Below, one piece after another: positions 2,916 to 62,909 of a DNA stretch of 64,000 nt. Made by a program: the position numbers and the translations under genes. Source of the stretch: Bacteroidales bacterium. GTDB taxonomy: Bacteria > Bacteroidota > Bacteroidia > Bacteroidales > P3. Location: the NCBI GenBank assembly GCA_017940465.1, contig JAGAYN010000044.1, positions 3,662 through 67,661 on the forward strand. Direction: 5' to 3'. The notes beneath the pieces are model-generated. The model searched no databases. It was not told the origin of the DNA and saw only the letters and a list, made by a program, of their open reading frames with translations. Position 1 is the stretch's first letter. Each line of letters starts with the position of its first letter.

Positions 2916-3091
2916 CTCCCCGTATATTACCAATCCCATCAACTCCCATTAACCCCATGAACAATTCCCCCAATCCCTCGACAATCCTTCGACAATCCTT
3001 CGGCGGTCTTCCCACCCTCTCCCTTCTTCGTGCCTTCTTCGATCCTTCTATGATCCTTACTTTATAACAATGAAAACAAGATAAAAAAACG

Positions 3092-7099: not shown

Positions 7100-8389
7100 A
7101 TGACTACAACATTAACTTCAGCAATCATCATCATCCTGGTCGTCATCCTGCTGCTGGTGGCGCTGCTCCTTGTGCTGCGCGCCAAGCTGGTGCCGCAGGG
7201 CAACGTCAAGATTACCATCAATGAAGATAAGGAACTCACCGCCCCGACGGGAGGCACCCTCATCTCCACCCTCGGCGAGCAAGGCATCCACCTGCCCTCG
7301 GCCTGCGGCGGCAAAGGCAGCTGCGGCCAGTGCAAATGCCGTGTCGTCCGTGGCGGCGGCGAGATTCTCCCCACCGAGAAAGGCTTCTTCAGCCGCAAGC
7401 AGCAGCAGGAGGGCTGGCGCCTCGGCTGCCAGGTGAAGGTCAAGGAAGACCTCGCCCTCCGGCTCCCCGAGAGCATCCTCAGCATCAAGGAATACGAGTG
7501 CACCGTGGTCAGCAACAGCAACGTCGCCACCTTCATCAAGGAGTTCAAGGTGCAGCTGCCCGCCGGCGAGCACATGGACTTCGTGCCCGGCAGCTACGCC
7601 CAGATCAAGATACCGAAGTTCACGGTGAAATACAGCGACTTCGACCGCTCCCTCATCGGAGACGAGTACCTGCCCGCCTGGGAGAAGGCGGGGATGTTCG
7701 ACCTCGTCTGCACGAACACCGAGCCCACCGTCCGCGCCTACTCCATGGCCAACTATCCCGCCGAGGGCGACGTCTTCATGCTCACCGTCCGCATCGCCAC
7801 CCCGCCGCTCACCGCCGACCGCAGCGGATTCCAGAAGGTCAACCCCGGCATCGCCTCTTCTTATATATTCTCGCTCAAGCCCGGCGACAAGGTCATCATG
7901 AGCGGCCCCTACGGCGAGTTCAGCGTCCGCGGCACCGCCGACGGCACCTGGAGCGACGACCCCAAGGGCAACGAGATGATCTGGGTCGGCGGCGGCGCCG
8001 GCATGGCCCCCCTCCGCGCACAGATCATGCACCTCACCCGCACCCTCAACTGCACCCACCGCCCGATGCACTACTTCTACGGCGCCCGCGCCCTCAACGA
8101 GGTCTTCTACCTGCAGGATTTCCTCCAGCTCGAGCAGTCGCACCCCAACTTCCACTTCCACCTGGCGCTGGACCGTCCCGACCCTGCCGCCGACGCCGCC
8201 GGCGTGAAGTACACCCCCGGCTTCGTCCACAACGTCATGCTCGAGACCTACCTCAAGGACCACCTCGCCCCCGAGGACATCGAGTACTACATGTGCGGCC
8301 CCGGTCCCATGAGCAAGGCCGTCATCCAGATGCTCGACTCCCTCGGTGTCCAGCCCGAGAGCATCGCCTTCGACGACTTCGGCGGCTGA
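7100..8389 (+). CDS. nqrF: Na+-NQR subunit F
   Basis: N-terminal TM helix, 2Fe-2S motif CGGKGSCGQCKC, FAD/NADH domain (RAYSMANYP, GGGAGMAP). Confidence 0.92.
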   Translation: MTTTLTSAIIIILVVILLLVALLLVLRAKLVPQGNVKITINEDKELTAPTGGTLISTLGEQGIHLPSACGGKGSCGQCKCRVVRGGGEILPTEKGFFSRKQQQEGWRLGCQVKVKEDLALRLPESILSIKEYECTVVSNSNVATFIKEFKVQLPAGEHMDFVPGSYAQIKIPKFTVKYSDFDRSLIGDEYLPAWEKAGMFDLVCTNTEPTVRAYSMANYPAEGDVFMLTVRIATPPLTADRSGFQKVNPGIASSYIFSLKPGDKVIMSGPYGEFSVRGTADGTWSDDPKGNEMIWVGGGAGMAPLRAQIMHLTRTLNCTHRPMHYFYGARALNEVFYLQDFLQLEQSHPNFHFHLALDRPDPAADAAGVKYTPGFVHNVMLETYLKDHLAPEDIEYYMCGPGPMSKAVIQMLDSLGVQPESIAFDDFGG

Positions 8390-8603
8390 TTTCTGCTACT
8401 CCTGCTGGCCACCACAGTCAGCACGCAGCAGGCCCGCCGCTATTGAGCCGCCGGGCCACTCTCGTGGAACGCCTTCCACCAACACTTCTGGCAGCGCTAC
8501 CGCCTGCCAGCCTCTTGGCACCCCGTTCCTCCGAATTGTCTCGCTGGAGCATCGATGCACGCCTGATGCTGATGCGCAACAAATACGGATTCTTTTACTT
8601 TTT

Positions 8604-8878
8604 TTTGCCACGTCGGAAAAAGTTCGCATCTTTGCACTCGCAAAACCGATAGGACGGTTTGCCGAGAAAGTTGCATTATCGCCTTATTCCGATTGTGTGA
8701 ACCTAGACAATTTACACGTCATCCGTAAAGTTAGGAATAGAGGAAATCCGATATGCTCCCATGGATTGATATCCACCTGTGGGGCAATTCAGAATACCTT
8801 TATATTCACTTTACGGGGAAGTCTAGGCCCTCACACAAGAAGATAGAGACTTAATGGATGGCTCCACTTTCTTCGTTG
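8604..8878 (+). ncRNA. Conserved promoter + structured 5' leader element, copy A
   Basis: TTTG (8604-8607), 19 nt, CATCTTTG (8627-8634). Blockwise alignment to 58608-58893 and 61079-61365. Ends in AATGGATGGCTCCACTTTCTTCGTTG, 72 nt before the ATG at 8950. Confidence 0.6.
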
Positions 8879-8949
8879 TATTAATTCACTCGCCGAAGAG
8901 CCTGTTGGCAAACTAACAGTTGCGCACGACACGTACCAGTGACACATTT

Positions 8950-9982: not shown

Positions 9983-10016
9983 GGCCCGCGACCCCGTCGC
10001 GGGCCTTTCTCTTTTT
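9983..10016 (+). terminator. Rho-independent terminator of the 8950 gene
   Basis: GGCCCGCGA / TCGCGGGCC stem followed by TTTCTCTTTTT. Confidence 0.7.
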
Positions 10017-10160
10017 GCATCCCCGGAGCACTCCTGCCAATGCCCTACAGGATAAAAAGAGGAGCAAAACCTATAGCATACAGCATACTGGCAATCAACA
10101 TGTTATACTGGTGCATTTTTCGGCCGTTTTCGGGTTTTTGTGCGAAAAACGGGCGGAGAT
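10014..10160 (+). repeat. Conserved 3' element, copy A
   Basis: GCATCCCCGGAGCACTCCTGCC, then a purine-rich box, then CATACAGCATACTGGCAATCAAC. Aligns with 59806-59950, 62910-63045 and, inverted, 21486-21612. Confidence 0.6.
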
Positions 10161-14045: not shown

Positions 14046-14155
14046 CACCCGGAAGGTATCCTATAGGTATCCCATAGGTATCCTGTAGGTATTTACTTCG
14101 ACTGTGAACCGATATGGCCCACTTCCGGACCACATTCCTCCGCCCGTCGAAAAAA
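14046..14155 (+). repeat. 11-nt tandem-repeat intergenic element, GGTATCC subfamily, copy 1
   Basis: Units GGTATCCTATA, GGTATCCCATA, GGTATCCTGTA, GGTATTTACTT (14055-14098), flanked by CCGGAAG and TTCCGGACCA. About 85% identical by eye to 51183-51285. Confidence 0.75.
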
Positions 14156-15178: not shown

Positions 15179-15199
15179 GGGGGGGGGGGGGGGGGGGGG
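15179..15199 (+). repeat. Homopolymeric G21 tract
   Basis: 21 consecutive G read directly. Lies 153 nt upstream of the FISUMP start codon and downstream of its predicted -7 box. Confidence 0.95.
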
Positions 15200-21485: not shown

Positions 21486-21612
21486 TCGATTTTTTGATTT
21501 TTTTTGCCCCGGAGGAGGAAAAATGCAGGATTACAACAGGCTGGAAACCAACATTCTGTATGCTATAGGTTTTGCTCCCCTTTCTATCCACCTGGTCTCC
21601 TCCAAGGGGGCT
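21486..21612 (-). repeat. Conserved 3' element family, copy D (inverted, not attached to a cassette)
   Basis: The reverse complement reads GGAGCAAAACCTATAGCATACAGAATG...CAGCCTGTTGTAATCCTGCA. This matches 10060-10090 and 59889-59910. Confidence 0.55.
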
Positions 21613-28892: not shown

Positions 28893-30422
28893 TTAATAGC
28901 CACGGTTGAACTGCTCGCCCACGGCACCCACCATGTTCTCCGGCAGCTGCTGGCGGCAGAGGCGGCGCTCCCATCCGGCCTCCTGCACCTCGCCGCGGGC
29001 GTTGCTGTTGAGGAGCTTGTAGAAGCCCGACCGGTGCTCGTCCCAGAAGAGGAACACACGGTTCGGGTCGTCGGTGGCCAGTTTGTTGTAGCGCCAGAGC
29101 TGGTACGGGAGGTAATAGACATGGCCCTGCGACTCGCTGGCCGAGGGGTCCTCGCCACCGCCGCCGCTCTCGCCGACGGTGATGCCGCGCGTGTTGCTGT
29201 GGGCCGCGTTGAGGTAGCGCGCGGAGACGTAGTTCTTCTCGTCGCGGATGAAGTCGGGCGGGCCGTACTGGAGGTAGACGCGGCCGCGGTCGGTGTGGAT
29301 GCCCGGCGTGCGGGGATAGCTGAACTGGGCCTGCACATAGTCCACCCGCTCCTTGTATTTCAGCCATGCCGCCTCGGGCGCCACGGGGTCGCGCTTGGTC
29401 CAGAAGCGGTAGAGGAACGCCTGCTTCTCCTCCAGCCCGGGGCGGCTGATGAGGTCGCGCGCCGCATCCTTCTCGTGTTCCGACGCCAGGGGGTAGAGGG
29501 CATCGATGTAGAGCGCGAGCTGCTGCTCGTCGGTGTAGCGGCCGGCAAACGTAGTCGCGAAGTCGCTGATCTCCACTCCCTTCACACCCGGGTTCGAGCG
29601 GAAGAAGGGAAGTTTCTTGTAGAGCATGAGCTGGTTTTCGGCGTTGCGCAGTTCCACCACCAGGTTGTAGTTGCCCGAAGGGAGGTGCGAGATGTCGAGC
29701 GAACCGTAGACGGGCACCACCTTCTCGCTGTATTTGCGGCGGGCCAGCTGCTGCCCCTCGAAGCGCGAGCCCGTCTCCTGCTGCTCCACGAAAGCGAGGG
29801 CGAGGAAGGGCTTGCGGCCGGTCTCGCGGTCGATGTTGTAGATTTCGTAGTAAAAGTTGAGCTGGTCGACGCTTTCGGGCAGGAAGTCGCTCACATAGGG
29901 CTCCATGTCGTAGCCGCCGCGCGAGAGGTTGTTCTCGCGTTCGGTGGGGGTGGCCGAGGCGATGAGCTGGATGCTGGAGAGCGACGGGTGCTGGGCGTCG
30001 TAGTTGATCACCAGTTTCTCCGCCACGACGGAGGGCTCGGCATCGGCAAGCTTGTCGCGCACCGAGAGTTCGAGGTCGTAGATGCCGTTGCGCATGGGGA
30101 AGCGCTGCAGGTCGAGGAAGGTGAAGTCGAGCTCGTCGAGCGACGCCACGGTGGGGCTGTTGAGGTCGTATTTCCGCAGGAAGCAGACCGAGTCGCCTTG
30201 CTTGAGGAGCAGCACCACCTCGGCCGTGGCGCGGTAGACGCCGTCGGGCTGGCGCTCGAACTGCATGGTCCACGCGTCGAAGGAGAGGTAGGTCTCCACA
30301 TAGGGGCTCTGGCGGTCGGCCAGCCAGAAGGTGCTGTAGCCGAAGAGGGCCTGCATCCTGGGCTGGGCCTGGGCGGTGGCCAGGAGGGCGGCCAGGGATA
30401 GGAATAGGATTGTCTTTTTCAT
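28893..30422 (-). CDS. GWxTD-domain protein
   Basis: Signal peptide MKKTILFLSLAALLATAQA. C-terminal block PGIHTDRGRVYLQYGPPD is typical of the GWxTD domain. Confidence 0.7.
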   Translation of the reverse strand: MKKTILFLSLAALLATAQAQPRMQALFGYSTFWLADRQSPYVETYLSFDAWTMQFERQPDGVYRATAEVVLLLKQGDSVCFLRKYDLNSPTVASLDELDFTFLDLQRFPMRNGIYDLELSVRDKLADAEPSVVAEKLVINYDAQHPSLSSIQLIASATPTERENNLSRGGYDMEPYVSDFLPESVDQLNFYYEIYNIDRETGRKPFLALAFVEQQETGSRFEGQQLARRKYSEKVVPVYGSLDISHLPSGNYNLVVELRNAENQLMLYKKLPFFRSNPGVKGVEISDFATTFAGRYTDEQQLALYIDALYPLASEHEKDAARDLISRPGLEEKQAFLYRFWTKRDPVAPEAAWLKYKERVDYVQAQFSYPRTPGIHTDRGRVYLQYGPPDFIRDEKNYVSARYLNAAHSNTRGITVGESGGGGEDPSASESQGHVYYLPYQLWRYNKLATDDPNRVFLFWDEHRSGFYKLLNSNARGEVQEAGWERRLCRQQLPENMVGAVGEQFNRGY

Positions 30423-30506
30423 CGCTTACGCCTTTGATACCAAAGGCTAACGCACAAGTGCGCGAATTATTGTGCGGGGGCGAAAATATTCTGCCGGGGG
30501 GATGCA

Positions 30507-30622
30507 CCGCGACTGGTCCGGATCGGTCCCGCCACCCGGACCGGCTCCCCACAGACCAACTCCGAGACAACTCCGTATCAACTCCGAGTCAACTCCGAGT
30601 CGACACCGACCCCCCTCCGGAG
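30507..30622 (-). repeat. 11-nt tandem-repeat intergenic element, CGGAGTTGA subfamily, copy 1 (inverted relative to 39424-39556)
   Basis: Units CCAACTCCGAG, ACAACTCCGTA, TCAACTCCGAG, TCAACTCCGAG, TCGACACCGAC (30556-30610). Flanked by CCGCGACTGGTCCGG and CCTCCGG. Confidence 0.8.
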
Positions 30623-30650
30623 CCTGCCCGCGGCGGTGTGGAAAAAAATA

Positions 30651-30682
30651 TTTGGCCGGACCGTTTTTTTTTCGTAACTTTG
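30651..30682 (+). promoter_or_regulatory. Promoter of the glycogen-synthase-like gene (TTTG-N20-TAACTTTG)
   Basis: -33 TTTG at 30651-30654 and -7 TAACTTTG at 30675-30682. The ATG is at 30711. Confidence 0.6.
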
Positions 30683-30710
30683 CACATTATACACACTATA
30701 CCACCAGAAT

Positions 30711-31538
30711 ATGGCGAAAGGGAGAATACTGTTTGTAAACCAAGAAATTATGCCGTTCTCGGCAGAGAACAGCCGCAGCCAGATGGGCCGCTACCTGCCT
30801 GCCAAAATGCAGGAAATGGGTCGCGAAATCAGGGTGTTCATGCCGAAGTTCTGTACCCTCAACGAGCGTAAATACCAACTCCACGAGGTCATCCGCCTCT
30901 CGGGGATGAACCTCATCGTGAACAACTGCGACCACCAGCTCATCATCAAGGTCGGCTCCATCCCCACGGCACGCATGCAGGTCTACTTCATCGACAACGA
31001 AGAGTACGTCATCGACGGCGACAGCATGCTCAACGCCAAAGGAGGCCTGCTGCCCGACATGGACGAGCGCCTCCTCTTCTTCGGCCGCGGCGTGCTGGAG
31101 GCCGTGCGCAAGCTGGCCTGGCAGCCGCATCTAATCAACTTCAGCGGCTGGCTCACCGCCATGATCCCCTTCTACCTGCGCCGCATCAACAAGGAGAACG
31201 CCTTCTTCACCGGCACCAAGATGGTCATCACCCTCACCGACGACCCCTTCAAGGGCAGCATCGGCGGCGACCTGGAGCGCAAGATGAAGACCGACAACGC
31301 CACCGCCAAGGACCTCCGCCTCTACGGACAGACCGACTACCTCGGCCTCATGAAGGCCGCCATCACCTACTCCCACGGCATCGTCATCGGCTCGCCCAAC
31401 GTGCACCCCGAACTCGTGGCCTACGCCAAAGAGAACAAACGCAACGTCCTCGACTATATCGACGACCGCGATGAGTTCTACTCCCGCATCAACAAACTGT
31501 ACGACACCGTCGTCGGAACCTCCAAATTCGAGAACTAA
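30711..31538 (+). CDS. Short glycogen/starch synthase-like protein (N-terminal catalytic-domain form)
   Basis: 275 aa. ILFVNQEIMPF and GRYLPAKMQEMGREIRVFMPKF resemble the starch synthase catalytic domain. Confidence 0.7.
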   Translation: MAKGRILFVNQEIMPFSAENSRSQMGRYLPAKMQEMGREIRVFMPKFCTLNERKYQLHEVIRLSGMNLIVNNCDHQLIIKVGSIPTARMQVYFIDNEEYVIDGDSMLNAKGGLLPDMDERLLFFGRGVLEAVRKLAWQPHLINFSGWLTAMIPFYLRRINKENAFFTGTKMVITLTDDPFKGSIGGDLERKMKTDNATAKDLRLYGQTDYLGLMKAAITYSHGIVIGSPNVHPELVAYAKENKRNVLDYIDDRDEFYSRINKLYDTVVGTSKFEN

Positions 31539-31544
31539 CCTGCC

Positions 31545-32789
31545 ATGAGACACCTCCGCACCACCCTCGCGGCCCTGCTGCTGGCCGCCCTCTTTGCCGC
31601 CTGCGAAGAGAAAGAGACCGCCGTGGGCATCGACCTCGTCGACCCGGACACCTTCTACCGCGGCACCACCCACACCCTCTACCCCGACGCAGCTTTCAGC
31701 AAAGTCGAGGACACCCTCCGCACCGACATCACCAGCGAGGGCATCCTGGGCAACCTGACCGACCCCGTCTACGGCCGCACCTCCGCCATCCTCTACACCC
31801 AGATCGCCCTCCCCTCCAACGCAGCCTCCATCGACTTCAACGAGGCACAGGTCGACTCGGTGGTCCTCTCCCTCACCAAAAAGAACCTCTTCCCCGACAC
31901 CGCCGCCACCTACCACCTGCGCCTTGAGGTACGCCTGCTGGACGAAGCCGTCGAGACCGACAGCGTCTACTACAGCACCAGCCAGCTCGCCGTCTCCGCC
32001 GACGCACCCCTCTTCGACCAATACATCGATGTGAGCTACACCGACACCGTGGTCCACCTCACCCTCGACAACCACATCAAGGACGTGCTCCGCACCAGCG
32101 CCACATCCAGCGAGTTCGTGCAGCACACCAAAGGGCTGCGCATCCGCGTCTCCGACGGCGAAGGGATGATGTCCATCGACTTCTCCGACGTGCGCACCTG
32201 CCTCACCGCCTACTACCACAACATCGCCTCCGGCGACACCCTCCGCAACCACTACACCTTCCTCATCGGCTACGGTGCCAAGCACTTCATGCAGTTCACC
32301 CACGACTACAGCGGCACCCCCCTGGCCGCGGGCGGCAACATCGACGGCACCGGACGCCTCTACCTCGAAGCCCTCGGCGGCCATGCCGTGCACCTCTCCT
32401 TCGACACCGCCATCCGCGCCTTCGCCGGGCAGCACCCCCGCGCCGTCATCCACTACGCCGAACTCCTACTCCCCCTCGCCCCCGAGGCCAGCACGTTCAC
32501 CCCTGGAGTGGTGATGGCCATGACCCAAGGCAGCAACAGCCCCTGGGTGGGCATCGCCGACCTCGCGGAGACCATCACCATCCGCGGCTACGACGGCACC
32601 TACGACCCCGACCTCAACCGCTTCCGCATCCGCCTGCCACGCCACGTGCAGCAGATGCACCGCCAAGGCAACGACCCGGGCATGCTGCTCGTGCTCGACG
32701 CACGCCGCAGCTCCGCCTACAACACCGTCTTCAACGGCATCGCCGACACCGCCACGGCACCCAAGATCGTATTCGTATACTCCGAATAA
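31545..32789 (+). CDS. Lipoprotein, probably DUF4270 family
   Basis: Lipobox LLAALFAAC. Its position right after the short glycogen-synthase-like gene matches what I recall for DUF4270. Family call is from memory only. Confidence 0.5.
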   Translation: MRHLRTTLAALLLAALFAACEEKETAVGIDLVDPDTFYRGTTHTLYPDAAFSKVEDTLRTDITSEGILGNLTDPVYGRTSAILYTQIALPSNAASIDFNEAQVDSVVLSLTKKNLFPDTAATYHLRLEVRLLDEAVETDSVYYSTSQLAVSADAPLFDQYIDVSYTDTVVHLTLDNHIKDVLRTSATSSEFVQHTKGLRIRVSDGEGMMSIDFSDVRTCLTAYYHNIASGDTLRNHYTFLIGYGAKHFMQFTHDYSGTPLAAGGNIDGTGRLYLEALGGHAVHLSFDTAIRAFAGQHPRAVIHYAELLLPLAPEASTFTPGVVMAMTQGSNSPWVGIADLAETITIRGYDGTYDPDLNRFRIRLPRHVQQMHRQGNDPGMLLVLDARRSSAYNTVFNGIADTATAPKIVFVYSE

Positions 32790-32800
32790 TACCCCCAGCC

Positions 32801-33946
32801 ATGAACACCAAGCACCTCGCCCTCGCCCTGGCCGCGCTGCTCATCCCCACCGGCCTCCAGGCACAGAAACTCTACCAAAAGAAGCACCAGAACAGCAACC
32901 AGACCTCGGTGGAAGGCCCCATGGACGACCAGGGACGCCGCACCGGCAACTGGACCTGGTGGTACCCCTCGGGCGCCGTCTCGCAGCAAGGCTCCTACCT
33001 CCGCGGCGAGAAAACCGGCCTCTGGACCACCTTCTACCAGGACGGCAGCCGCATGTCCGAAGAAACCTTCGGCGACGGCTTCAACCGCACCTGGCACCAG
33101 AACGGAGACCTCCGCAGCGAAGTGCCCGTCGCCAACGGCAAACCCAACGGCCTCTACCGCTCCTGGCACCCCAACGGGCAGAAGGAAGAGGAGACCACCT
33201 ACGCCGACGGCAGCCGCGAAGGCGCCACCACACAGTGGCACCCCAACGGCAAGGTGCGCTTCCAGGGCCAGTACAAGAACGACGAGCTCCAGGGCCCGGC
33301 CACATGGTACTTCGCCAACGGCAAGGTGGACATGAAGGGCAACCTCGTCGACGGCCTGCAGGAAGGCGAATGGAACTTCTACTGGAACTCCACCGGGAAA
33401 CTGGGCACCAAGGGACAATACACGAAAGGGAAAGAGAGCGGCCAGTGGATATACTACTACGAGACCGGCGAACAATGGCGCACCGGCTCCTACGTGGCCG
33501 GCCAGCGCGAGGGCCTCTGGACCACATGGTACGAAAGCGGCCGCAAACTGCACGAGGGACAATACCTCAACGGCAAGGAGAACGGCAAGTGGACCTCCTG
33601 GTACGAGGACGGCAAGGTGGACTACTACGGCGAGTTCCGCAACGGGATGAAAGAGGGCGAGTGGCGAGGCCTCTACGACGACGGCACCACACGCTACGTC
33701 ATCCACTACACCAACGACGTGAAGGACGGCGAGGAGGTGCGCTACTACCCCAACGGCAAGGTCGAACTCCGCCAGCATTTCACCCAGGGCACCCTCAACG
33801 GCAAGTACGAGCGCTACAGCGAATCGGGCGCGCCCGTCGAGAAGGGCGAGTTCACCATGGGCGAGAAAGAGGGCCGCTGGGTGTGGTACGACAACGGACG
33901 TGAAGCATACAAAGCCCGCTTCAAGGACGGGCAAGAGGTGAAATGA
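32801..33946 (+). CDS. MORN-repeat variant (YwqK-like) protein
   Basis: Signal peptide followed by about a dozen G.W..WY..G..........G units. Confidence 0.75.
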   Translation: MNTKHLALALAALLIPTGLQAQKLYQKKHQNSNQTSVEGPMDDQGRRTGNWTWWYPSGAVSQQGSYLRGEKTGLWTTFYQDGSRMSEETFGDGFNRTWHQNGDLRSEVPVANGKPNGLYRSWHPNGQKEEETTYADGSREGATTQWHPNGKVRFQGQYKNDELQGPATWYFANGKVDMKGNLVDGLQEGEWNFYWNSTGKLGTKGQYTKGKESGQWIYYYETGEQWRTGSYVAGQREGLWTTWYESGRKLHEGQYLNGKENGKWTSWYEDGKVDYYGEFRNGMKEGEWRGLYDDGTTRYVIHYTNDVKDGEEVRYYPNGKVELRQHFTQGTLNGKYERYSESGAPVEKGEFTMGEKEGRWVWYDNGREAYKARFKDGQEVK

Positions 33947-34506
33947 GACTGCTCCTGGCCTCGCAATCGCCCCGCCGCCGCCAGCTGCTGGACGCGCTGG
34001 GATTCCCCGTGGAGTTCATCTCTCCCGACGTGAAGGAGGAGGTTCCCTCCGACCTGCCGGCCTGCCAGGCGGCGGAATACCTCGCCCGACTCAAGGCCGA
34101 AGCCTGCCCCACCGACCATATCGCACCGGACCAGGTGCTCATCGCCGCCGACACGGTGGTGGTGTTGCACGGCCACGCCCTCGGCAAGCCCCGCGACCGG
34201 CACGAGGCCGTCGCCATGCTCAAGGCGCTCTCCGGCCAGCCACACTCCGTATTCACCGGCGTATGCCTCCGCACCCCCACGCTCACTCACTCCTTCTCGG
34301 AAGAGACCATCGTCCACTTCGCCCCCCTTTCCGACGCCGACATCGCCCACTATGTGGACACCTACCGCCCCTTCGACAAGGCGGGGGCTTACGGCATACA
34401 GGAATGGATCGGCATGGTGGGCATCACCCGCATCGAGGGATGCTACTACAACGTCATGGGTCTCCCCGTGGCGCGGCTCTACTGTGAACTTCAACTCCTC
34501 GGCTGA
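33943..34506 (+). CDS. maf: Maf-like nucleoside triphosphate pyrophosphatase
   Basis: MRLLLASQSPRRRQLL signature and AGAYGIQE motif. Confidence 0.9.
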   Translation: MRLLLASQSPRRRQLLDALGFPVEFISPDVKEEVPSDLPACQAAEYLARLKAEACPTDHIAPDQVLIAADTVVVLHGHALGKPRDRHEAVAMLKALSGQPHSVFTGVCLRTPTLTHSFSEETIVHFAPLSDADIAHYVDTYRPFDKAGAYGIQEWIGMVGITRIEGCYYNVMGLPVARLYCELQLLG

Positions 34507-36386
34507 AGGCGGAGGAACATCTGCCTGTCAAGCTGCAATTCCCCGCTGTCGAGCATAGCCCGCAGCGCGTCGGAGCAGGCGGTGAATCCCCTTGTAGACA
34601 AGGCTTCGCGCAGGTCGGCCACGCTCATGGGCGCCACCTGCAGCAGTTCCCGCACCGCATCTTCCACCCTACCCTCCGTATCAGCCTTGCCAAGACACAC
34701 GTCGCACTGGCCGCACTCCCCCACCACGGCCTCGCCGAAGTAGGTCACCAGCTGCTGGCTGCGGCACTGACGGGCGTTACCCACATAGGCCTCCATGGCC
34801 TCCAGGCGCGCCAGCGCTGCCTCCTTCACGCGGCCGTAGCGCTCCTCGCCGGGGTATATCTGGCGCTCGTCGACGCGTTCGGTCAGGAAGTAGATCTGTG
34901 GCTTGCGGGGGCGCGGGCTGTATTCCACCACCTTCATCTCGTGCATGCGGCGCAGGTGTGTCGCCACCTCGGCGGCGGTGCATCCGCATCGGGCGCCCAA
35001 TTTGCCCTCGTCGATGCGCACAGGCATGGAGGAGAGGCCCGGATAGAGGCGCATGGCGGCCAGCAGCACCTCGCCCAGCATCAGGTGCTCTACCCGGAAC
35101 CGGTAGAGCTCCGCGCGGGAGGCGGGAGCATAGAGGGTGGCGAACGCCTCCTCATGGCCTGGCAGTGCGATGAGCCCTTCGCGCTCCAGGAAGCGGCAGG
35201 CGCTGAAGACCAGGCGGGGGTCCATGCCGTAGTGGCTGCAGACCTCCTCGAGGTCGAAGTCGAAATGCGTGTCGGCGCCGCTGCCGATGGGGAGGCGGTA
35301 GTGGTTGCAGAGGGCGCGGTAGACGTTGCGCAGCTGTGCCACGGAGGGGTAATCGTCGGCGAAACGGCGGCGTAGCTGCCGCAGGTCGGCGGGGTCGTAG
35401 AGGAGGGCGGCGAGGGCTGGCTTGCCGTCACGGCCGGCGCGTCCGGCCTCCTGGAAGTAGGCTTCCAGCGAGTCCGGCAGGTCCATGTGCACCACCAGGC
35501 GCACGTCGGGTTTGTCGATGCCCATGCCGAAGGCGTTGGTGGCCACCATGCAGAGGGCGCGTCCCTCCATCCATGCCAGCTGGCGGCTGTCGCGTTCGCG
35601 GGCGTCGAGTCCTGCGTGGTAGCAGGTGGCCTTCACGCCGTGCTGCTCCAGCAGGCGGGCCACCTCCTGGGTCCGCCGGCGGCTGCGGGTGTAGACGATG
35701 CTGCTCCCTCCGGCTTCGGCCACCAGCCGCGCCAGCCGCGCCACCTTGTCGCCGCCCTGCATCACGCGGTAGGCCAGGTTGGAGCGCACGAAGCTGCTGC
35801 GGAACACTTGGCAGTTGCGCATGAGGAGGCGCTGGCGTATGTCGTCCACCACGGCGGGGGTGGCGGTGGCGGTGAGGGCGATGAGTGGGGCGGCGGGGTG
35901 GTATTGGCGTATGGCGGCCACGTCGAGGTATGGGGGGCGGAAGTCATAGCCCCACTGCGAGACGCAGTGCGCCTCGTCCACGGCCAGCATTCCCACCTGC
36001 ATCTTCCGGAAGTATTCTATGAACATGCGCTGCTTCAGGCGCTCGGGGGAGACATAGAGCAGCTTGAGGGTGCCGCAGAGGGCGTTGCCCAGCACGTCGG
36101 CCATCTCCTGGCGGTTCATGCCTGCGACGAGGCAGGCGGCCTTGATGCGGCGGTCGTTGAGTTGCTGCACCTGGTCCTTCATCAGGGCGATGAGGGGCGA
36201 CACCACGAGGCACACCCCCGGGCGGAGCAGGGCGGGGAGCTGGTAGCAGAGCGACTTGCCCCCACCAGTAGGGAGCAGGGCCAGTGTGTCCTGGCCCTGC
36301 TCCACAGCTTTGATTATCTCTTCCTGCAGGGGTCTGAAGGCTTGGTAGCCCCAGTGCTTCTGCAGCAGTGCGTGTCGTCTGTCCAT
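34491..36386 (-). CDS. recQ: RecQ family ATP-dependent DNA helicase
   Basis: The ATG at 36386 gives MDRRHALLQKHWGYQAFRPLQEEII. Motifs PTGGGKSLCYQLPAL, DEAH box (VDEAHCVSQWGYDFRP) and CGQCDVC. Confidence 0.9.
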   Translation of the reverse strand: MDRRHALLQKHWGYQAFRPLQEEIIKAVEQGQDTLALLPTGGGKSLCYQLPALLRPGVCLVVSPLIALMKDQVQQLNDRRIKAACLVAGMNRQEMADVLGNALCGTLKLLYVSPERLKQRMFIEYFRKMQVGMLAVDEAHCVSQWGYDFRPPYLDVAAIRQYHPAAPLIALTATATPAVVDDIRQRLLMRNCQVFRSSFVRSNLAYRVMQGGDKVARLARLVAEAGGSSIVYTRSRRRTQEVARLLEQHGVKATCYHAGLDARERDSRQLAWMEGRALCMVATNAFGMGIDKPDVRLVVHMDLPDSLEAYFQEAGRAGRDGKPALAALLYDPADLRQLRRRFADDYPSVAQLRNVYRALCNHYRLPIGSGADTHFDFDLEEVCSHYGMDPRLVFSACRFLEREGLIALPGHEEAFATLYAPASRAELYRFRVEHLMLGEVLLAAMRLYPGLSSMPVRIDEGKLGARCGCTAAEVATHLRRMHEMKVVEYSPRPRKPQIYFLTERVDERQIYPGEERYGRVKEAALARLEAMEAYVGNARQCRSQQLVTYFGEAVVGECGQCDVCLGKADTEGRVEDAVRELLQVAPMSVADLREALSTRGFTACSDALRAMLDSGELQLDRQMFLRLQPRS

Positions 36387-36391
36387 CGGCG

Positions 36392-39337
36392 TCAGCGCAG
36401 GAGGGTAACCGTCCCCTGGTGCTGGCTGAGGCTGCTGCTGGAGGGTTTGCGGTAGCGGCAGGTGTAGACGTAGGTGCCCTGGGGGAGGTTCTCGCCGTTG
36501 TGGGTGCCGTCCCAGGTGAAGCTCTGGTCGTCGCTCTCGTACACCAGCTCGCCCCGGCGGTTGTAGATGTAGATGTGGAAGTATTCGTAGGCGTTCACGG
36601 AGTACATCTTGAAGAGCGCGTTGCCGTCGCGGCTGTCGGGGGTGAAGACGTTGGGGAACCATGCCGTGAAGAGGGCGACGGGGATGCCGAAGTGGTGGAC
36701 GATGGGGCAGCCGAGTTCGTTGTAGGAGGTGAGGACCACGTGGGCGGAGTCGCGCCCGATGACGCCCTCGAAGGCGTGGGTCACTTCCTTGCCGGTGGAC
36801 ATGACGCCGTCCTCGAACTCCCATTCGGAGAGGTAGCTTCCGTTGCCGGCGTCGCGCATGGTGATGCGGGGGTCGTCAGAGTCGATGTAGGCGGGGGTGT
36901 AGTCCACGCTGGGGACGACGAGGGGGACGACGGTGACGGTCTTCTTGAGCGGCGTGGCGTCGCAGTCGTTGGCGCCGTGGCCCACCATGGTGTAGACGGT
37001 GGTCCGGGTGGGAGAGACGGCGATGCGGTCCTGCGTCTCCTGTCCGGCGAGGGAGGGGTCGGCGGGCGAGGCGGTCCAGGTGTAGTGGTCGGCGGCGGTG
37101 CCGGTGAGTTCAGCCACCTGGCCCGGGCAGATGCGTCCGTCCTCGGGTGTCATGGTGAGTTCAGGGGTCACCAACTGCACCACGATGCTGTCCCATGCCA
37201 CGCAGCCTTGCGGGCTGGTCACCTTGACATAGTAGGTCTCGTATTCGCTCTGGGGGACCACCTGCAGTTTCTGGCCGGCGGGCAGGCCGCCTTCCACCAC
37301 GCCGAGGCGGCGCGACCATTCATAGGTGCAGTTGGCCACACCCTTGGCCCTCACCTCCACGTCGGTGCGGCTGCCCTCGCAGACGATCTGTTCGCCCGTG
37401 ACGTCCAGTTCGGGGTGGAGGAAGACCGACACGGTGTCGGTCACCGTGGTGCTGCACCACATGGTGTCGGTGCCGTCCATCCAGTACATGCCGTTGTAGA
37501 CGGTGAGGCGGATGGGTTCCACGGAGTGGGTGAAGGAGCGGTTGATGGATTTGTTCTCGGTGCCTTCGCCGGTGATGACGAAGGAGAGGGTGGTGTCGCC
37601 GTTGGGGGCGGCGGGGTCGAGCAGTTCCCAGCGGCGGCTGGTGCCGGCTCTGCAGGTGTCGGTGATTTGGGTGGAGGCTTCGTCGCAGAGCACGCGGTCA
37701 GAGATGGTCATGCCCTTGGTGGCGGGGTTGACGCGGGGCTGGATGGGGAAGAGCTGGTCGGTGTAGCATTGGGCGGTGTCGGCCGGCGTAACCGTCTTCC
37801 ACACGCGCACCAGGAGGCTCTTGGGGTCGGCGTCGGTGAAGGAGGTCATCACCGTGTCGCCCGTGTGGCTGAAGGCGGGGTTGCCGAGGCCGGTGGCGTT
37901 GTTGTAGAACTTCCATTCGGTGCGGCTGTTGTCCACCGAGGCGCTGGTGCCCACGCCGGGCACGAGGCTGTGGTCCCAGAGACGCACCGAGCCGTCGCAC
38001 ATCAGCAGCGAGTCCACCTGGATGGCGGGCTTGGTGTTCTCCACGTTCACGTAGAGGCGTGTCTTGAAGGGCTTGGCGGGGTCGATGGCGGACTTCATCT
38101 CGCAGCAGATGGTCTGCCGGGCGCTCATGTAGTTGCAGGGCACGGTCTGCCCGGCGGCGTTGCGCTCGCGCGTCACCTGGAAGTCGGCGGCCTGCAGTTT
38201 ATAGATGTGGCCGCTGTCGGCCTCGGTGCGTTCGGTGGTGAGGGGGCGGAAGGTGTAGTGGGACGTCGACTGGGGGTCCGAGGGGTCGAGGTTGAGGTAG
38301 GCGATGGGACTCTCGCCCCATTCCGAGGCGTACCACTGGTAGCCCAGCAGGCCGCGGGGAGCGGTGAGGGTGGTCACGTCGGTGGTGGCACCCGAGGGGC
38401 AGCCGGACTGCTGGATCTCCATCGGACGGCACTCGCCCGCGATGTAGGCGTAGCCAAAGTGGCCGGACCATTCGCAGTCGCCCATCATCACTTCGATGCG
38501 CACCTGCTCGGAGATGTATTTCGAGAGGTTGATGGAGACCTTGGCCCAGTCCTTGTATATGATGTCATTGCTACTTCCGTAGTGCCATCCGTTCTCGTTG
38601 TAGTCGCTGAGAATCTGTGCAGTACCACCGTTGCTGGTGGAGGTGGAGGTGACATAGTAGGCCAGCCAGCCCTCATTCTCGCTGTAGATCTGCTGCCAGT
38701 TTCCGGAAGCGTTCTTCTTCATCACGCGGACAACCACCGTAGGATCGTATTTTTTTCCGTGTCCAGTGCCACTCGGAGCCTCCACAACGGCGGCATAGTA
38801 GAGGTAGAGCATGGCATTGTCTGCCGTGACCGGCATGGTGTAGTACAACGCTGCCGCCTGGGCACCGGTTTTCCCGTCGCCGATGCGGATGCTGGAGGTG
38901 ATATTGGTCGGCACGTCGTTGGTGCCGGTGCTGACGGTGTTGAAGTGCGTGGGCACTATCTTCAGGCGCGTCCCGCCGGCGTTGGGGTCGTACTGCACGG
39001 CATCGGTAGTCTTGTTGACCCGGAATTGCTTGTCGTTGTCCGGCAGGCCGGCATTGCCATAGCCGCTGTTTGCAGTGACATTGGCCAGCTGGTTACCGCT
39101 ATACATGGTATTATTAAACGTCATTGCTGTGTATGCAGTCAGTACATCAGGCTCACCCTCGTCCTTCTTCCCACTCTGTCCGCTCCACGTGTACATCGCA
39201 TTACCCGTGTTGAAGTTGGCCGGGTTGCTCCAGCCCGGGCAGGCTGTGGATTGGCTCCAGGTGCTGTTCTGGCTCCAGGCAGGCACCGCCGCCGCCAGCA
39301 GCAACGCCATCATTGTCAGTCTCGTTTTCATAACCAT
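36392..39337 (-). CDS. Large secreted adhesin-like protein with T9SS type-B (gliding motility-associated) C-terminal domain
   Basis: Start MVMKTRLTMMALLLAAAVPAWSQ. Ig-like repeat body. C-terminus FPNVFTPDSRDGNALF...YIYNRRGELVYES...FTWDGTHNGENLPQGTYVY. Confidence 0.85.
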   Translation of the reverse strand: MVMKTRLTMMALLLAAAVPAWSQNSTWSQSTACPGWSNPANFNTGNAMYTWSGQSGKKDEGEPDVLTAYTAMTFNNTMYSGNQLANVTANSGYGNAGLPDNDKQFRVNKTTDAVQYDPNAGGTRLKIVPTHFNTVSTGTNDVPTNITSSIRIGDGKTGAQAAALYYTMPVTADNAMLYLYYAAVVEAPSGTGHGKKYDPTVVVRVMKKNASGNWQQIYSENEGWLAYYVTSTSTSNGGTAQILSDYNENGWHYGSSNDIIYKDWAKVSINLSKYISEQVRIEVMMGDCEWSGHFGYAYIAGECRPMEIQQSGCPSGATTDVTTLTAPRGLLGYQWYASEWGESPIAYLNLDPSDPQSTSHYTFRPLTTERTEADSGHIYKLQAADFQVTRERNAAGQTVPCNYMSARQTICCEMKSAIDPAKPFKTRLYVNVENTKPAIQVDSLLMCDGSVRLWDHSLVPGVGTSASVDNSRTEWKFYNNATGLGNPAFSHTGDTVMTSFTDADPKSLLVRVWKTVTPADTAQCYTDQLFPIQPRVNPATKGMTISDRVLCDEASTQITDTCRAGTSRRWELLDPAAPNGDTTLSFVITGEGTENKSINRSFTHSVEPIRLTVYNGMYWMDGTDTMWCSTTVTDTVSVFLHPELDVTGEQIVCEGSRTDVEVRAKGVANCTYEWSRRLGVVEGGLPAGQKLQVVPQSEYETYYVKVTSPQGCVAWDSIVVQLVTPELTMTPEDGRICPGQVAELTGTAADHYTWTASPADPSLAGQETQDRIAVSPTRTTVYTMVGHGANDCDATPLKKTVTVVPLVVPSVDYTPAYIDSDDPRITMRDAGNGSYLSEWEFEDGVMSTGKEVTHAFEGVIGRDSAHVVLTSYNELGCPIVHHFGIPVALFTAWFPNVFTPDSRDGNALFKMYSVNAYEYFHIYIYNRRGELVYESDDQSFTWDGTHNGENLPQGTYVYTCRYRKPSSSSLSQHQGTVTLLR

Positions 39338-39423
39338 ATCTTGTTTTGTTTGTTCTTGTTCTACACTTATAGACACCCTTTCCGCCGTTTTGATGCATCG
39401 CCCCGCAACTTTTTTTCCGCCCC

Positions 39424-39556
39424 CCGCCGGAGGAGGGTCGGAGTTGACTCGGAGTTGATACGGAGTTGTCTCGGAGTTGACTCGGAGTTGGTCCCCGGCA
39501 CGCATGTCCGGCTTCCGGAACCCGCCCGGAGCAGCCCCGGACCAATCGCGGAACGC
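39424..39556 (+). repeat. 11-nt tandem-repeat intergenic element, CGGAGTTGA subfamily, copy 2
   Basis: Units GTCGGAGTTGA, CTCGGAGTTGA, TACGGAGTTGT, CTCGGAGTTGA, CTCGGAGTTGG (39437-39491). Flanked by CCGGAGG and CCCCGGACCAATCGCGG. Confidence 0.8.
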
Positions 39557-39561
39557 CCTGC

Positions 39562-40818
39562 CTATCTACCCTGTTCCCCAGCGGGTTTCGACCCCACCAG
39601 GGCGTAGAAAAGGATATATCCGAAGCCCGCCACCACCAGCCAGTAGCTGCCCACGAAGCCCACTCCGTCGGCCAGCATGTTCTGGAAGAAGGGCAGGATG
39701 CCGCCGCCGCAGACGAGGGTCATGAAGATGCCGCTGGCCAGGGGGGTGTACTTGCCCAGCCCCTCGGTGGAGAGGTTGAAGACGGCGCCCCACATCACCG
39801 AGGTGCAGAGGCCGCAGAGGGTGGCGAAGAGCACCTTGAGGGGCACCGCCGCGCCCCGCAGCGCCACCGTGGCCGACGCCGGCACCGCCATGAAGCACAC
39901 CACCAGCACCACCGCCACCGCTGCCGCCACCGCCAGCATCGTCCGGCTCGACACCCGTCCGCCCAGCAGGCCGCCCACGAAGCGGCCGCACAGCATCAGG
40001 AACCAATAAGCGCCGATGAACCATCCCGCAAGGTCGGCCCCCAGCCCCAGGCCGCCGCCCGATGCGGGGGTGGTCATGTAGAGGTTGGCCGTGTTGGGGA
40101 TGCCCACCTCGACGCCCACGTAGCAGAAGATGGCCACGGCGCCGAGGGTGAAGTGGCGGAAGCCCAGGGGCGAGGTGCGGTCCTGCGCGCGCGCTGCCCG
40201 CTGCCCGGCCGTCTCGAGGTGGGGTTCCGGTATCTTGGTCGCCACGATGACCACAAACGCCAGCGCAAAGATGCCCATGGCGATAAGCATCGCCGGCGCA
40301 GCGTCGGCGACGGAGGCCGTCTCCACCGTGCCGCCGATGAGGTAGCCCAGCAGGATGGGCGCTATGGTGCCGCCCGCGCTGTTGAGCGTGCCGCCCCACT
40401 GGATGAGCTGGTTGCCGCGGTTGCCGCCGCCGCCCAGCGTGTTCAGCATCGGGTTCACCACCGTGTTCAGCAGGCACATGGAGAAGCCCGCCACCAGGGC
40501 ACCGGCCACGTAGACCGCGAAGCTCTCCACATATCCCGAGAGGAACTGTATGCCCACCCCCACGAAGCCCACCGTCACGGCCAGGAGCGAGGTCGCCTTG
40601 TAGCCCCGCCGGCGCAGGATGATTCCCGCAGGGATGCCCATGCAGGCATAGGCTATGAAGTTGGCCAGCGTGCCCAGCTGCGCCATCGCGTTGCCGGTGC
40701 CGTACTGGTTCTTGACGATGACGCCCATCGAACCAGCGAAGTTGGTCACGAACGCTATCATGAAAAACAGCAGGAACATCACCACTATGGGCACTGCAAA
40801 GTTCTGTCTCCTCTCCAT
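39562..40818 (-). CDS. Sugar MFS transporter (FucP/GluP-like)
   Basis: 418 aa with 12 TM helices. The N-terminal FFMIAFVTNFAGSM and GIPAGIILRRRGYK blocks are typical of the glucose/galactose-fucose permease group. Confidence 0.8.
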   Translation of the reverse strand: MERRQNFAVPIVVMFLLFFMIAFVTNFAGSMGVIVKNQYGTGNAMAQLGTLANFIAYACMGIPAGIILRRRGYKATSLLAVTVGFVGVGIQFLSGYVESFAVYVAGALVAGFSMCLLNTVVNPMLNTLGGGGNRGNQLIQWGGTLNSAGGTIAPILLGYLIGGTVETASVADAAPAMLIAMGIFALAFVVIVATKIPEPHLETAGQRAARAQDRTSPLGFRHFTLGAVAIFCYVGVEVGIPNTANLYMTTPASGGGLGLGADLAGWFIGAYWFLMLCGRFVGGLLGGRVSSRTMLAVAAAVAVVLVVCFMAVPASATVALRGAAVPLKVLFATLCGLCTSVMWGAVFNLSTEGLGKYTPLASGIFMTLVCGGGILPFFQNMLADGVGFVGSYWLVVAGFGYILFYALVGSKPAGEQGR

Positions 40819-51182: not shown

Positions 51183-51285
51183 CTCCGGACGGGCAGCGAC
51201 CCTATAGGTATCCCCCAGGTATCCCCTAGGTATTTACTTCGACTGAGAACCGATATGACCCTTTATGGACCATCTGAAAAAAAGT
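51183..51285 (+). repeat. 11-nt tandem-repeat intergenic element, GGTATCC subfamily, copy 2
   Basis: Units GGTATCCCCCA, GGTATCCCCTA, GGTATTTACTT (51207-51239), then CGACTGAGAACCGATATGACCC and ATGGACCA. Aligns with 14046-14155. Confidence 0.75.
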
Positions 51286-51294
51286 GGCTCGATT

Positions 51295-51327
51295 TTTTCA
51301 CCCAGACCGAAAAAAAATGTATCTTTG
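51295..51327 (+). promoter_or_regulatory. Orphan promoter-like sequence (TTTT-N21-TATCTTTG) with no downstream CDS
   Basis: GAAAAAAAATGTATCTTTGCACCC has the same context as functional promoters here. It points toward the nadB 3' end. Confidence 0.4.
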
Positions 51328-51470
51328 CACCCGCCTCCTCGTCTCCTGCCGGGGCTGCGGCAGGTGGTACTCTTCAGCACCGACGGAAAACCGGCTCTCC
51401 GCGCCGAAGCCGACGGCAGCAACCCCCTCCGCATCGACACGCGCCACCACGGCAGGCTCCAAAACAGAAC

Positions 51471-51502
51471 GGGTAGTGGTGGAATGACTCCACCCACTAC
51501 CC
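51471..51502 (-). terminator. Terminator of nadB
   Basis: GGGTAGTGGTGGA / TCCACCCACTACCC stem (one bulge) 29 nt after the nadB stop, followed on the minus strand by GTTCTGTTTTGG. Confidence 0.6.
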
Positions 51503-51530
51503 TCTTGGTTTCCACTGCACAAAGGCAACG

Positions 51531-58500: not shown

Positions 58501-58607
58501 GTTGGTTTTTGCCCTTGTAACGCACACCCCCGCCTGTTTATTGCCTACCGATATATGTTTTCATGCGTAGAATGACAGCTCACGGATCGCGGCAGCCAAA
58601 ATATTTT

Positions 58608-58893
58608 TTTGCCGTATGAGAAAAAGTTTGTACTTTTGCACCCGCAAACCGCCGAGACATGGTTTGCCGAGAAAGTTGCATTTTTCGCCTTATTCCGAGT
58701 TTGTGAACTTGGCCGTTCATCAATAATGATATGTAGGAATAATAGGGAAGATGAATGCTCCTGTTTGGAATGTATGCACATGAGATACATCCAGTGTGGA
58801 GCGAATCATTAAACCATTATTTTATATCATTGGGAGGCCAAGCCCACACAAACAAAATAGTGCCAAGAATGGATGGCTCCACTTTCTTCGTTG
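58608..58893 (+). ncRNA. Conserved promoter + structured 5' leader element, copy B
   Basis: TTTG (58608-58611), 19 nt, TACTTTTG (58631-58638). Conserved blocks and helices are described in the findings. Ends 80 nt before the ATG at 58974. Confidence 0.6.
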
Positions 58894-58973
58894 CGTAAAA
58901 CTATCCCTCCCGTGCCGTGGGGAACAACTCAACAGCGACGGGCCGATGCTTTATAACCGGCTACAAAAAACCA

Positions 58974-59774: not shown

Positions 59775-59809
59775 GGGACACCTATGCCTTGCAGAGGTGT
59801 CCCTTTTTT
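59775..59809 (+). terminator. Rho-independent terminator of the 58974 gene
   Basis: GGGACACCT / AGGTGTCCC stem followed by TTTTTT. Confidence 0.75.
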
Positions 59810-59950
59810 GCATCCCTGCCATCCTCCCGGAGCACTCCTGGAGGGTAAGGAGAGGGGAAGAAGAGGGTGCCTCTTACATACTGAAAAACAGCCTGTTGCA
59901 AAACTGCAACTTAGGGCTGTTTTTCGGTTTTTTTTCGGAAAATCTGCAAA
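59806..59950 (+). repeat. Conserved 3' element, copy B
   Basis: TTTGCATCCC...CCGGAGCACTCCTGGAGG, then GAGGGGAAGAAGAGGGTGCCTCTTACATACTGAAAAACA, then a hairpin at 59889-59919 with a T-run at 59920-59936. Confidence 0.6.
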
Positions 59951-60863: not shown

Positions 60864-61078
60864 ATCTACATAGTTTATCCGCATAACGCTATATCACAAT
60901 GATTTATTACCCAACTATGTGAAAATAGCCAGTTACATGCCATTGCCACCACTCGTTACATATTATTTCATTCTATACGCATGATTCACAGCAATATAAC
61001 ATTGAACGTGCCAAATCTGGAATTGAATTCCAAATTTAGCCAGTGTGGATAGCCATCCTCCTATTCGCAGAAATATTT

Positions 61079-62889: not shown

Positions 62890-62909
62890 TACGGATATCT
62901 CTCCCAGCC

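Follow-up and report, generated by a model that had tools for sequence, protein, structure and literature searches.

TCCG-phased 11-nt arrays in a Bacteroidales genome as probable copies of a dispersed intergenic minisatellite

The stretch of DNA considered here, 64,000 nucleotides (nt) of contig JAGAYN010000044.1 from a Bacteroidales bacterium (assembly GCA_017940465.1) and hereafter called the window, has a G+C content of 58.5% and carries two short tandem arrays of 11-nt units, A and B, which lie in inverted orientation upstream of two genes. Their presence raises the question of whether they are regulatory sites dedicated to those genes or elements of another kind. An earlier note on this DNA had favoured the former, regarding the arrays as binding sites for an activator of the OmpR/PhoB type. 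Comparison with sister species and with a large number of related arrays has led to a different answer, namely that A and B are probably two copies of a lineage-specific, non-coding minisatellite dispersed among intergenic regions, similar in kind to the repetitive extragenic palindromes (REP) and bacterial interspersed mosaic elements (BIME) or to the BrickBuilt element, with a TCCG core that would serve as a platform for a protein.

The five tandem 11-nt units at 30556-30610 and the inverted twin at 39437-39491 that had been described in the earlier note have both been confirmed in the sequence, by Tandem Repeats Finder (TRF) and by a repeat search. As read from the sequence, array A (plus strand) consists of CCAACTCCGAG, ACAACTCCGTA, TCAACTCCGAG, TCAACTCCGAG and TCGACACCGAC, and array B (minus strand) of five CAACTCCGnnn units, with TRF assigning to each a period of 11 and 4.8 copies. 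The repeat search has detected a perfect 42-nt inverted match between the two (30557-30598 and 39438-39479), embedded in 114-nt arms that are 76% complementary (30507-30620 and 39427-39540). When up to one mismatch is allowed, CAACTCCGAG occurs 14 times in the window against an expected 4.75, a count reached by none of 100 shuffles, and exact runs of at least three TCCG or CGGA motifs spaced by 11 nt are found in the 64-kb window only at A and B (shuffle mean 0.035). The cores and the full elements are as follows.

30557-30611, plus strand: core of A, reading CAACTCCGAGA, CAACTCCGTAT, CAACTCCGAGT, CAACTCCGAGT and then the degenerate CGACACCGACC (sequence, TRF, repeat search, 11-nt register)
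39436-39490, minus strand: core of B, reading CAACTCCGAGT, CAACTCCGAGA, CAACTCCGTAT, CAACTCCGAGT and CAACTCCGACC (sequence, TRF, repeat search, 11-nt register)
30502-30633, plus strand: element A, about 12 phased 11-nt units with TCCG or CCG kept in phase (11-nt register, TCCG phase run, 114-nt arm)
39425-39566, minus strand: element B, about 13 phased 11-nt units starting 6 nt past the stop codon of a major facilitator superfamily (MFS) gene (11-nt register, CGGA phase runs)

The extent of the full elements has been established by laying out regions A and B in rows of 11 nt, which revealed that the apparent flanks of both arrays are decayed units of the same array, the whole elements measuring about 130-140 nt and comprising 10-13 units in which TCCG is strictly phased at 11 nt. 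Element A begins with ATGCACCGCGA, CTGGTCCGGAT and CGGTCCCGCCA, followed by two units without the core, four perfect CAACTCCGnnn units, and then CGACACCGACC, CCCCTCCGGAG and CCTGCCCGCGG; its decayed, GC-rich leader, to which CTGGTCCGGAT belongs, occupies 30502-30556, and its tail is formed by CCCCTCCGGAG at 30612-30622 and the subsequent CCTGCCCGCGG. Element B, read from 39566 down to 39425, comprises four TCCG leader units (39566-39523, three of them reading TCCGG), two decayed units, five perfect CAACTCCGnnn units and the tail unit CTCCTCCGGCG at 39435-39425, its CGGA phase runs at 39428-39486 and 39516-39552 being mutually in phase. Considering that B has one more perfect unit distally and A one more degenerate unit proximally, the two elements appear to differ by gain and loss of units. 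Their leader motif occurs in the window only at A and B. The leader and tail units of the two elements match at about 5-9 of 11 positions (about 65% identity) while the 42-nt core is identical, a combination which, by our estimate (~0.65^42), would be very unlikely under equal neutral decay. The core being held much more tightly than the leader and tail units, this points to either constraint on the core or its recent homogenisation by gene conversion.

A and B appear to belong to a large TCCG-phased 11-nt superfamily of gut and rumen Bacteroidales, whose members occupy every type of spacer. A scan of a genome collection with a two-unit pattern of 16 fixed bases, for which many matches outside Bacteroidota are expected by chance, has yielded at least 116 loci, where Bacteroidales metagenome-assembled genomes (MAGs) stand out with several each (among the matches listed, eight in UBA2939, for example). 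A metagenome scan requiring three units has yielded at least 120 loci with at least 128 arrays of 3-16 units each, and the two scans together amount to at least several hundred CAACTCCG arrays. A frequent architecture among the matches listed is [CAACTCCGnnn]n, a short palindrome such as TCCGACTGCAGTCGGA, and then [nnCGGAGnnnn]m, with the direct and inverted arms having only the CTCCG/CGGAG core in common. In many members of the superfamily, a leader is followed by a direct array, a central palindrome, an inverted array of CGGA and finally a tail. Of the additional TCCG motifs lying no more than 70 nt from the units that the pattern imposed, 34 of 35 on the upstream side and 33 of 38 on the downstream side keep the 11-nt phase; downstream, 17 of 29 steps from one CGGA site to the next measure 11 nt, and the information content of unforced neighbouring units is highest at TCCG. 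Subfamilies also occur, in which leader, centre and tail modules are conserved, the leaders and tails recurring across different samples and MAGs: one runs from ...GTTATAGTATAAC...CTCAAAGTCAACAT through the array to GTTGTCCGCTTTTTGTCGGAC and the hairpin module TTAGGTCGTGCGCGACCTAA, and another consists of heptad repeats, the array and CAACTCTCACTCCGTATCTGTTAATTTTAAC. The AGGTCG-N4-CGACCT hairpin module of sister subfamilies has no recognisable intergenic copy among the matches in the window. Where one contig carries two elements, the distance between them is 1.2-11 kb, and in most cases 4-11 kb, among the matches listed. When tandem repeats other than the seed arrays were counted in about 400 kb of Bacteroidales DNA, periods of 7 (25 cases) and 11 (21 cases) prevailed over those of 8, 10 and 13 (5, 6 and 2 cases, respectively).

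The positions taken by these elements in relatives have a direct bearing on their nature. By a crude call of open reading frames (ORFs), 30 of the 35 Bacteroidota arrays among the matches listed are intergenic, in mixed orientation. Among the metagenome matches listed, 18 lie in divergent and 16 in convergent spacers, with 19 in sense and 11 in antisense orientation between co-directional genes, an orientation bias that is not significant; the distance to the next start codon ranges from 17 to more than 1000 nt (median 166). The earlier note had held that arrays found at random orientations and distances from genes would speak against an operator, and such a distribution is largely what these relatives display. 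TAnnTTTG promoter motifs within 250 nt fire away from the elements in 13 cases on the 3' side and in 13 on the 5' side, and into them from upstream in none of 38. Between the last TCCG and the downstream -7 box there are 29-188 nt, with no preference modulo 11 and hence no sign of helical phasing or of a fixed distance. Together, these promoter directions and the missing modulo-11 preference indicate that the elements are untranscribed spacer DNA beside promoters, without a fixed geometry.

Comparison of unit number across strains, which had been suggested in the earlier note, has given a divided result: the number varies among relatives and is the same in the same-species assemblies described below. 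At loci with 98-100% identical flanks, L299 differs from L313 and L206 from L294 (8 and 3 units in the latter pair). Units are gained and lost by slippage in these relatives, and, as unit numbers differ at the same locus across metagenomes, the arrays expand and contract in nature.

A phage origin has been considered and rejected, a viral scan having given 74 stretches, for the most part either arrays from unrelated phyla or a repeat in the coding sequence of a single phage gene. Separately, a conserved CCAACTCCGnTCCAACTCCGTTC...GACTAACTCCGATTC motif has been noticed right after the stop codon in eight alphaproteobacterial or high-G+C viral loci (L057, L075, L132, L142, L149, L153, L174 and L192); it belongs to an unrelated lineage and is probably an operator of its own.

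The genes and promoter regions bordering the two elements are listed below.

28893-30422, minus strand: divergent upstream gene with a weak GWxTD-domain match; the neighbour at this position differs in sister species (Pfam, synteny)
30651-30682, plus strand: Bacteroidetes-type promoter of the GT5 operon, with -33 TTTG at 30651-30654, a 20-nt spacer and the -7 box TAACTTTG at 30675-30682 (sequence, orthologous conservation)
30711-31538, plus strand: Glyco_transf_5 (GT5) gene, short and glycogen/starch-synthase-like, heading a conserved GT5-DUF4270/BamH-MORN-Maf operon (Pfam E = 7e-35, synteny)
36392-39337, minus strand: secreted protein of the type IX secretion system (T9SS) with Ig_7 and CHU_C domains, downstream of B (Pfam, gene calls)
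39338-39424, minus strand: ancestral upstream region of the CHU_C gene (GAAAAAAA...GGGTGTCTATAAG...), outside the repeat (homology to L327)
39562-40818, minus strand: MFS transporter, fucose-permease-like, with its stop codon directly before B (Pfam)

Element A sits in a 288-nt divergent spacer (30423-30710). The promoter that had been predicted at 30651-30682, between array A and the gene, has been borne out by its conservation in the corresponding spacers of three sister species (L125, L127 and L129); it is preceded by an A-tract at 30642-30649 and fits what we take to be the Bacteroidetes consensus (TTTG / TAnnTTTG), as known for Bacteroides. A sigma-70 scan has given no promoter at 30651-30682, which is the usual outcome in this phylum, nor any in the elements. 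The core units of A extend over about -78 to -133 relative to the inferred transcription start, in line with the upstream position that had been proposed. The spacing from repeat to start codon also agrees with that noted earlier: 100 nt separate A from ATG 30711, and 99 nt separate B from ATG 39337, with gene callers favouring 39331 over 39337 as the start of the gene downstream of B. Behind array B, neither a canonical -33/-7 (TTTG/TAnnTTTG) promoter nor an intrinsic terminator has been found, and no intrinsic terminators have been detected within elements A and B.

In the sister species L125, L127 and L129, the GT5 operon and its promoter have been retained (82-85% amino-acid identity of the GT5 protein), the promoters reading TTTTTTTTTGTAACTTTGCAC, TTTTTTTTGTAATTTTGCA and TTTTTCGTATTTTTGCAC. 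The array is absent from these orthologous spacers (113-238 nt), the bordering gene is a different one (RecX or TrmE), and no TCCG-phased runs occur in the 20-kb sister GT5 loci. The DNA proximal to A aligns with the L127 promoter at a local score of 40, which none of 500 shuffles reaches, the homology beginning at AAATATTTGG. At the site of B, the array is likewise absent after the MFS gene in L325-L327: in L325 and L326 the gene is followed by a hairpin and T-run terminator, in L327 by other palindromic repeats, and the next gene differs each time. Proximal to B, the sequence that begins with GAAAAAAA and extends nearly to the ATG has a homologue in L327, upstream of a related CHU_C gene (39% protein identity); the local alignment scores 34, and the best of 500 shuffles attains 27. 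In L327, a different 8/16-nt array, GGAGATAA/GGAGGTAA, at 7545-7650 ends just upstream of the stretch homologous to the region that B abuts; in L325, a RecQ-CHU_C pair is inverted relative to the MFS gene.

Both A and B lie at synteny breakpoints, the gene before the GT5 operon and the one after the MFS gene differing in every sister species examined, and, taken together with the absence of the arrays from orthologous spacers, this indicates that the two elements are lineage-specific additions. The sister-species comparison also clarifies the matching flanks that had been reported for the two arrays. The distal CGCGAYTGGTCCGG is part of the phased array, given that TCCG stays in phase across the flanking decayed units. 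The proximal GGAAAAAAA is in turn probably not part of the repeat: the homology to sister species already begins at AAATATTTGG in A and at GAAAAAAA in B, and the sequence common to A and B is most likely ancestral promoter-proximal DNA that each array abuts. A and B have each come to lie on the upstream border of a promoter-proximal region that already existed.

The model favoured here brings these features together in the following manner. TCCG would recur at the identical position in each helical turn, with the five central CAACTCCGnnn units well kept and the outer ones decayed. A protein bound to one face of the DNA would require a strict one-turn period and a conserved TCCG core, as seen here, and the phased core may act as a platform for the cooperative binding of one protein along a single face, as suggested by the retention of TCCG at one-turn spacing in decayed units, by inverted arms that share only the core and by the excess of period 11. 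Candidates for this protein would be a host nucleoid factor or the enzyme spreading the element. Copying between spacers may proceed by non-autonomous transposition or recombination, as suggested by the leader and tail modules held in common and by the absence of the arrays at orthologous sites. Any influence of the elements on neighbouring promoters would be modulatory and incidental.

Several observations weigh against this interpretation. Only two copies are visible in the 64-kb window, the high copy number having been seen in relatives, and the leader or tail of A and B has not been found at other places among about 320 fetched loci. The scans forced the CAACTCCG core, and matches in other phyla carry no weight. 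No dynamics are apparent within the species: in the five further same-species assemblies that were located via exact protein look-ups, both array spacers are identical in all five. No terminal inverted repeats or target-site duplications are recognisable at the boundaries of A and B, and neither these, nor an empty site with exact boundaries, nor a partner transposase has been identified, the last without a dedicated transposase search; mobility is therefore putative. Lastly, the interpretation treats the nearly equal distances of 100 and 99 nt to the ATG, and the fact that both arrays face their genes, as either a coincidence or a common preference for the upstream edges of promoters.

These last features are also what lends some appeal to the activator proposed in the earlier note. 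According to that model, the five 11-bp direct repeats bind a winged-helix (OmpR/PhoB-type) or similar activator, which, acting from about -80 to -135, controls the GT5 operon and the T9SS gene jointly. The period of 11 with 4.8 copies and strict TCCG phase conforms to the OmpR/PhoB-like spacing that had been claimed, the direct repeats have an invariant 8-nt core, the 42-nt core is identical in A and B despite the divergence of their flanks, both arrays are oriented towards the downstream gene, and A lies upstream of a genuine and conserved promoter. A site dedicated to both genes would nonetheless be expected to have a fixed promoter geometry and to be conserved with the orthologous promoters, and neither is found: the orthologous GT5 promoter is present in three sister species without any array, B has no canonical promoter behind it, and in relatives the same units are found in convergent spacers as well, pointing either way, at no set distance and without any phase relation to promoters. 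The inverted CGGA arms and the leader and tail modules of many relatives are what a dispersed repeat, and not an operator, is built of, and neither such arms nor the 10-13 phased units resemble a pho box. Pho boxes contain an A/T-rich minor-groove segment, and the GC-rich units have none. The arrays thus argue only weakly for an OmpR/PhoB-type upstream activator, which is distinctly unlikely. The earlier note had also named identity with a REP/BIME-type repeat as a finding that would speak against its proposal, and a dispersed repeat of the REP/BIME or BrickBuilt kind is indeed what is favoured, though no known family has been matched. Another explanation, also an unlikely one, is that A and B are slippage debris, neutral minisatellites originating from an old duplication or gene conversion with neither binding partner nor function, where the conservation of TCCG reflects nothing but the common descent of the units. 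This would be in keeping with the unit-number polymorphism of relatives, with the lack of conservation of the arrays across species and with the many unrelated 7-, 8- and 11-nt arrays in these spacers, including the 8/16-nt array before the L327 CHU_C gene. It does not account for TCCG staying in phase in units that have otherwise decayed, for CGGA arms that keep the core and not the rest of the unit, or for leader and tail modules conserved across different MAGs, and the excess of period 11 over 8, 10 and 13 is not expected from slippage alone.

Action at the RNA level is a very improbable alternative, in which the C-rich sense strand (CAACUCCG repeated) would operate in the transcript, whether as a small RNA, as a leader or attenuator, or as a Rho-loading (rut-like) site. 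The regular spacing of YC dinucleotides is similar to that of sequence bound by Rho; B, furthermore, lies in sense orientation 6 nt past the MFS stop codon, where there is no intrinsic terminator. A, however, occupies a divergent spacer into which no promoter reads, the elements of relatives are equally devoid of incoming promoter motifs (0 of 38 within 250 nt), and the leader units are G-rich. Predicted folds are inconsistent, with z scores against shuffles of -2.2 and -0.4 for the sense strands of A and B and -5.0 and -0.6 for the antisense strands. Rfam has given no match at the gathering score over the whole window, none at E values up to 10 over 30300-39700 and none in 18 sister-element loci, which also argues against an RNA element. 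A Rho-loading site in particular has been set aside, with A not in a transcribed position and the leader units rich in G. Hardly credible is a shufflon-like switch, in which the inverted 42-nt cores would serve as recombination substrates and allow the intervening 8.8-kb segment to invert. The perfect inverted repeats 8.8 kb apart and the location of both sites at breakpoints of synteny with sister species could be taken as signs of such a switch, but all same-species assemblies spanning both arrays (L117, L118 and L120) share the orientation of the window, inversion would exchange the outer flanks only, both promoter-proximal regions being inside the segment, and the enclosed genes are core genes with a conserved order. 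A bolder extension of the dispersed-repeat interpretation, rather doubtful in itself, is that the TCCG-phased arrays, together with their inverted CGGA arms and modular leaders and tails, form an undescribed high-copy system of gut and rumen Bacteroidales comparable to REP and its associated RAYT transposase, where one specific protein, a host nucleoid factor or a domesticated transposase, polymerises on one face of the array and the elements settle by preference at the upstream edges of promoters, insulating or tuning transcription. The more modest interpretation of A and B as dispersed minisatellites remains the preferred one.

The window contains additional repeats and non-coding stretches. 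A second dispersed 11-nt family is present at 14051-14120 and 51192-51261 (both plus strand), with 2.5-3.5 AGGTATCCnnn units and a common tail of about 40 nt (TTACTTCGACTGWGAACCGATATGRCCC); the copies are 86% identical over 70 nt, one lying past the stop codon of a gene and the other upstream of a promoter at 51294-51337. At 51294-51530, this canonical promoter (TATCTTTG at about 51321) is followed by about 190 nt without an ORF on that strand, possibly a non-coding RNA. At 2934-3058, tandem units of 10 and 11 nt (TCCCATCAAC, CAATCCTTCGA, CCTTCTTCGAG) form a compound run directly 5' of a gene starting at 3092. A third dispersed element of about 100 nt has four copies, at 10010-10125 (plus), 21518-21600 (minus), 59800-59895 (plus) and 62895-62980 (plus), which share ...CGGAGCACTCCTG...AGAGG.GC...CATACWG, at least three of them being adjacent to a terminator-like hairpin at a gene's 3' end. 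Non-coding stretches of about 290 nt, paralogous to one another, occur at 8601-8894, 58605-58894 and 61076-61365; they are 83-100% identical in blocks, each starts at a strong Bacteroidetes promoter and precedes a gene, and they have no Rfam match and may be leaders or small RNAs. An intergenic homopolymer of 21 G at 15179-15199 is of a slippage-prone length and could be phase-variable.

If the dispersed-minisatellite interpretation is correct, gut and rumen Bacteroidales carry many short phased repeats beside promoters and at synteny breakpoints. Repeats of this kind interrupt short-read assemblies, as at array A, inside which three Logan contigs end; they can also seed rearrangements, and they could give access to an unknown DNA-binding protein. 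For annotation, this means that comparative evidence is needed before an 11-bp array lying upstream of a Bacteroidales promoter is taken for a regulon-specific operator.

A literature search on the unit sequences and dimers and on 11-bp repeats and RAYT/REPIN in Bacteroidetes has returned no published description of the family, BrickBuilt being the sole analogue; the TCCG-phased 11-nt family is therefore without a description in the literature searched or in Rfam. Several known systems invite comparison. Pho boxes (bound by PhoB), the R1 parC site (11-bp iterons bound by ParR) and the heptads of the omega repressor consist of short repeats with a period of about one helical turn, bound cooperatively on one face and located beside promoters. 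The repeats are direct, in the case of omega also inverted, and such arrays are few per replicon, fixed by their cognate genes and conserved with them. The period near one helical turn is shared by the elements described here, which differ in that they are scattered, take no constant position or orientation and are missing from orthologous promoters. The short tandemly repeated repetitive (STRR) sequences of heterocystous cyanobacteria are 7-nt tandem units scattered over numerous intergenic regions, for which no function is known. They resemble the present elements as families of very short tandem units scattered across spacers, and differ in phylum and in unit length (7 against 11 nt); to our knowledge, STRR sequences have neither a helical-turn period nor an inverted arm.

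Like REP, BIME and REPIN elements of Proteobacteria, the elements are short, extragenic, non-coding and lineage-specific, with a high copy number seen in relatives, and they are mosaics of modules, form inverted pairs able to fold into hairpins and lie near gene ends and promoters. A REP is described as one imperfect palindrome of 20-40 nt that has either GTAG or CGTC as its tag (PMC3733652). The building block of the present family is by contrast a non-palindromic tandem 11-mer, with a central palindrome only in some sister subfamilies, and neither a RAYT gene nor a REP tag has been identified, no search aimed at transposases having been made.

The closest described analogue of the A and B arrays is BrickBuilt, a minisatellite inside a transposable element of the miniature inverted-repeat type (MITE) in Porphyromonas gingivalis (Klein et al. 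2015, PMC4596501). With a unit of 23 nt, it is always intergenic, 49-591 nt from genes, with several copies beside T9SS cargo genes, and it is bounded by IS5-like terminal inverted repeats (GAGACCTTTGCA), with short flanking duplications in three of the four full copies (PMC4596501). The A and B arrays differ in their 11-nt unit with a helically phased TCCG core, which has no similarity to the 23-nt unit, and in showing neither recognisable terminal inverted repeats nor duplications, nor any similarity to GAGACCTTTGCA; their leader and tail are themselves decayed units, and their relatives carry an inverted CGGA arm. The features held in common with BrickBuilt are a Bacteroidales host, tandem units without spacers, imperfect copies with conserved and variable positions, a common leader and tail around the array, an intergenic location, a variable number of units and a T9SS cargo gene nearby.

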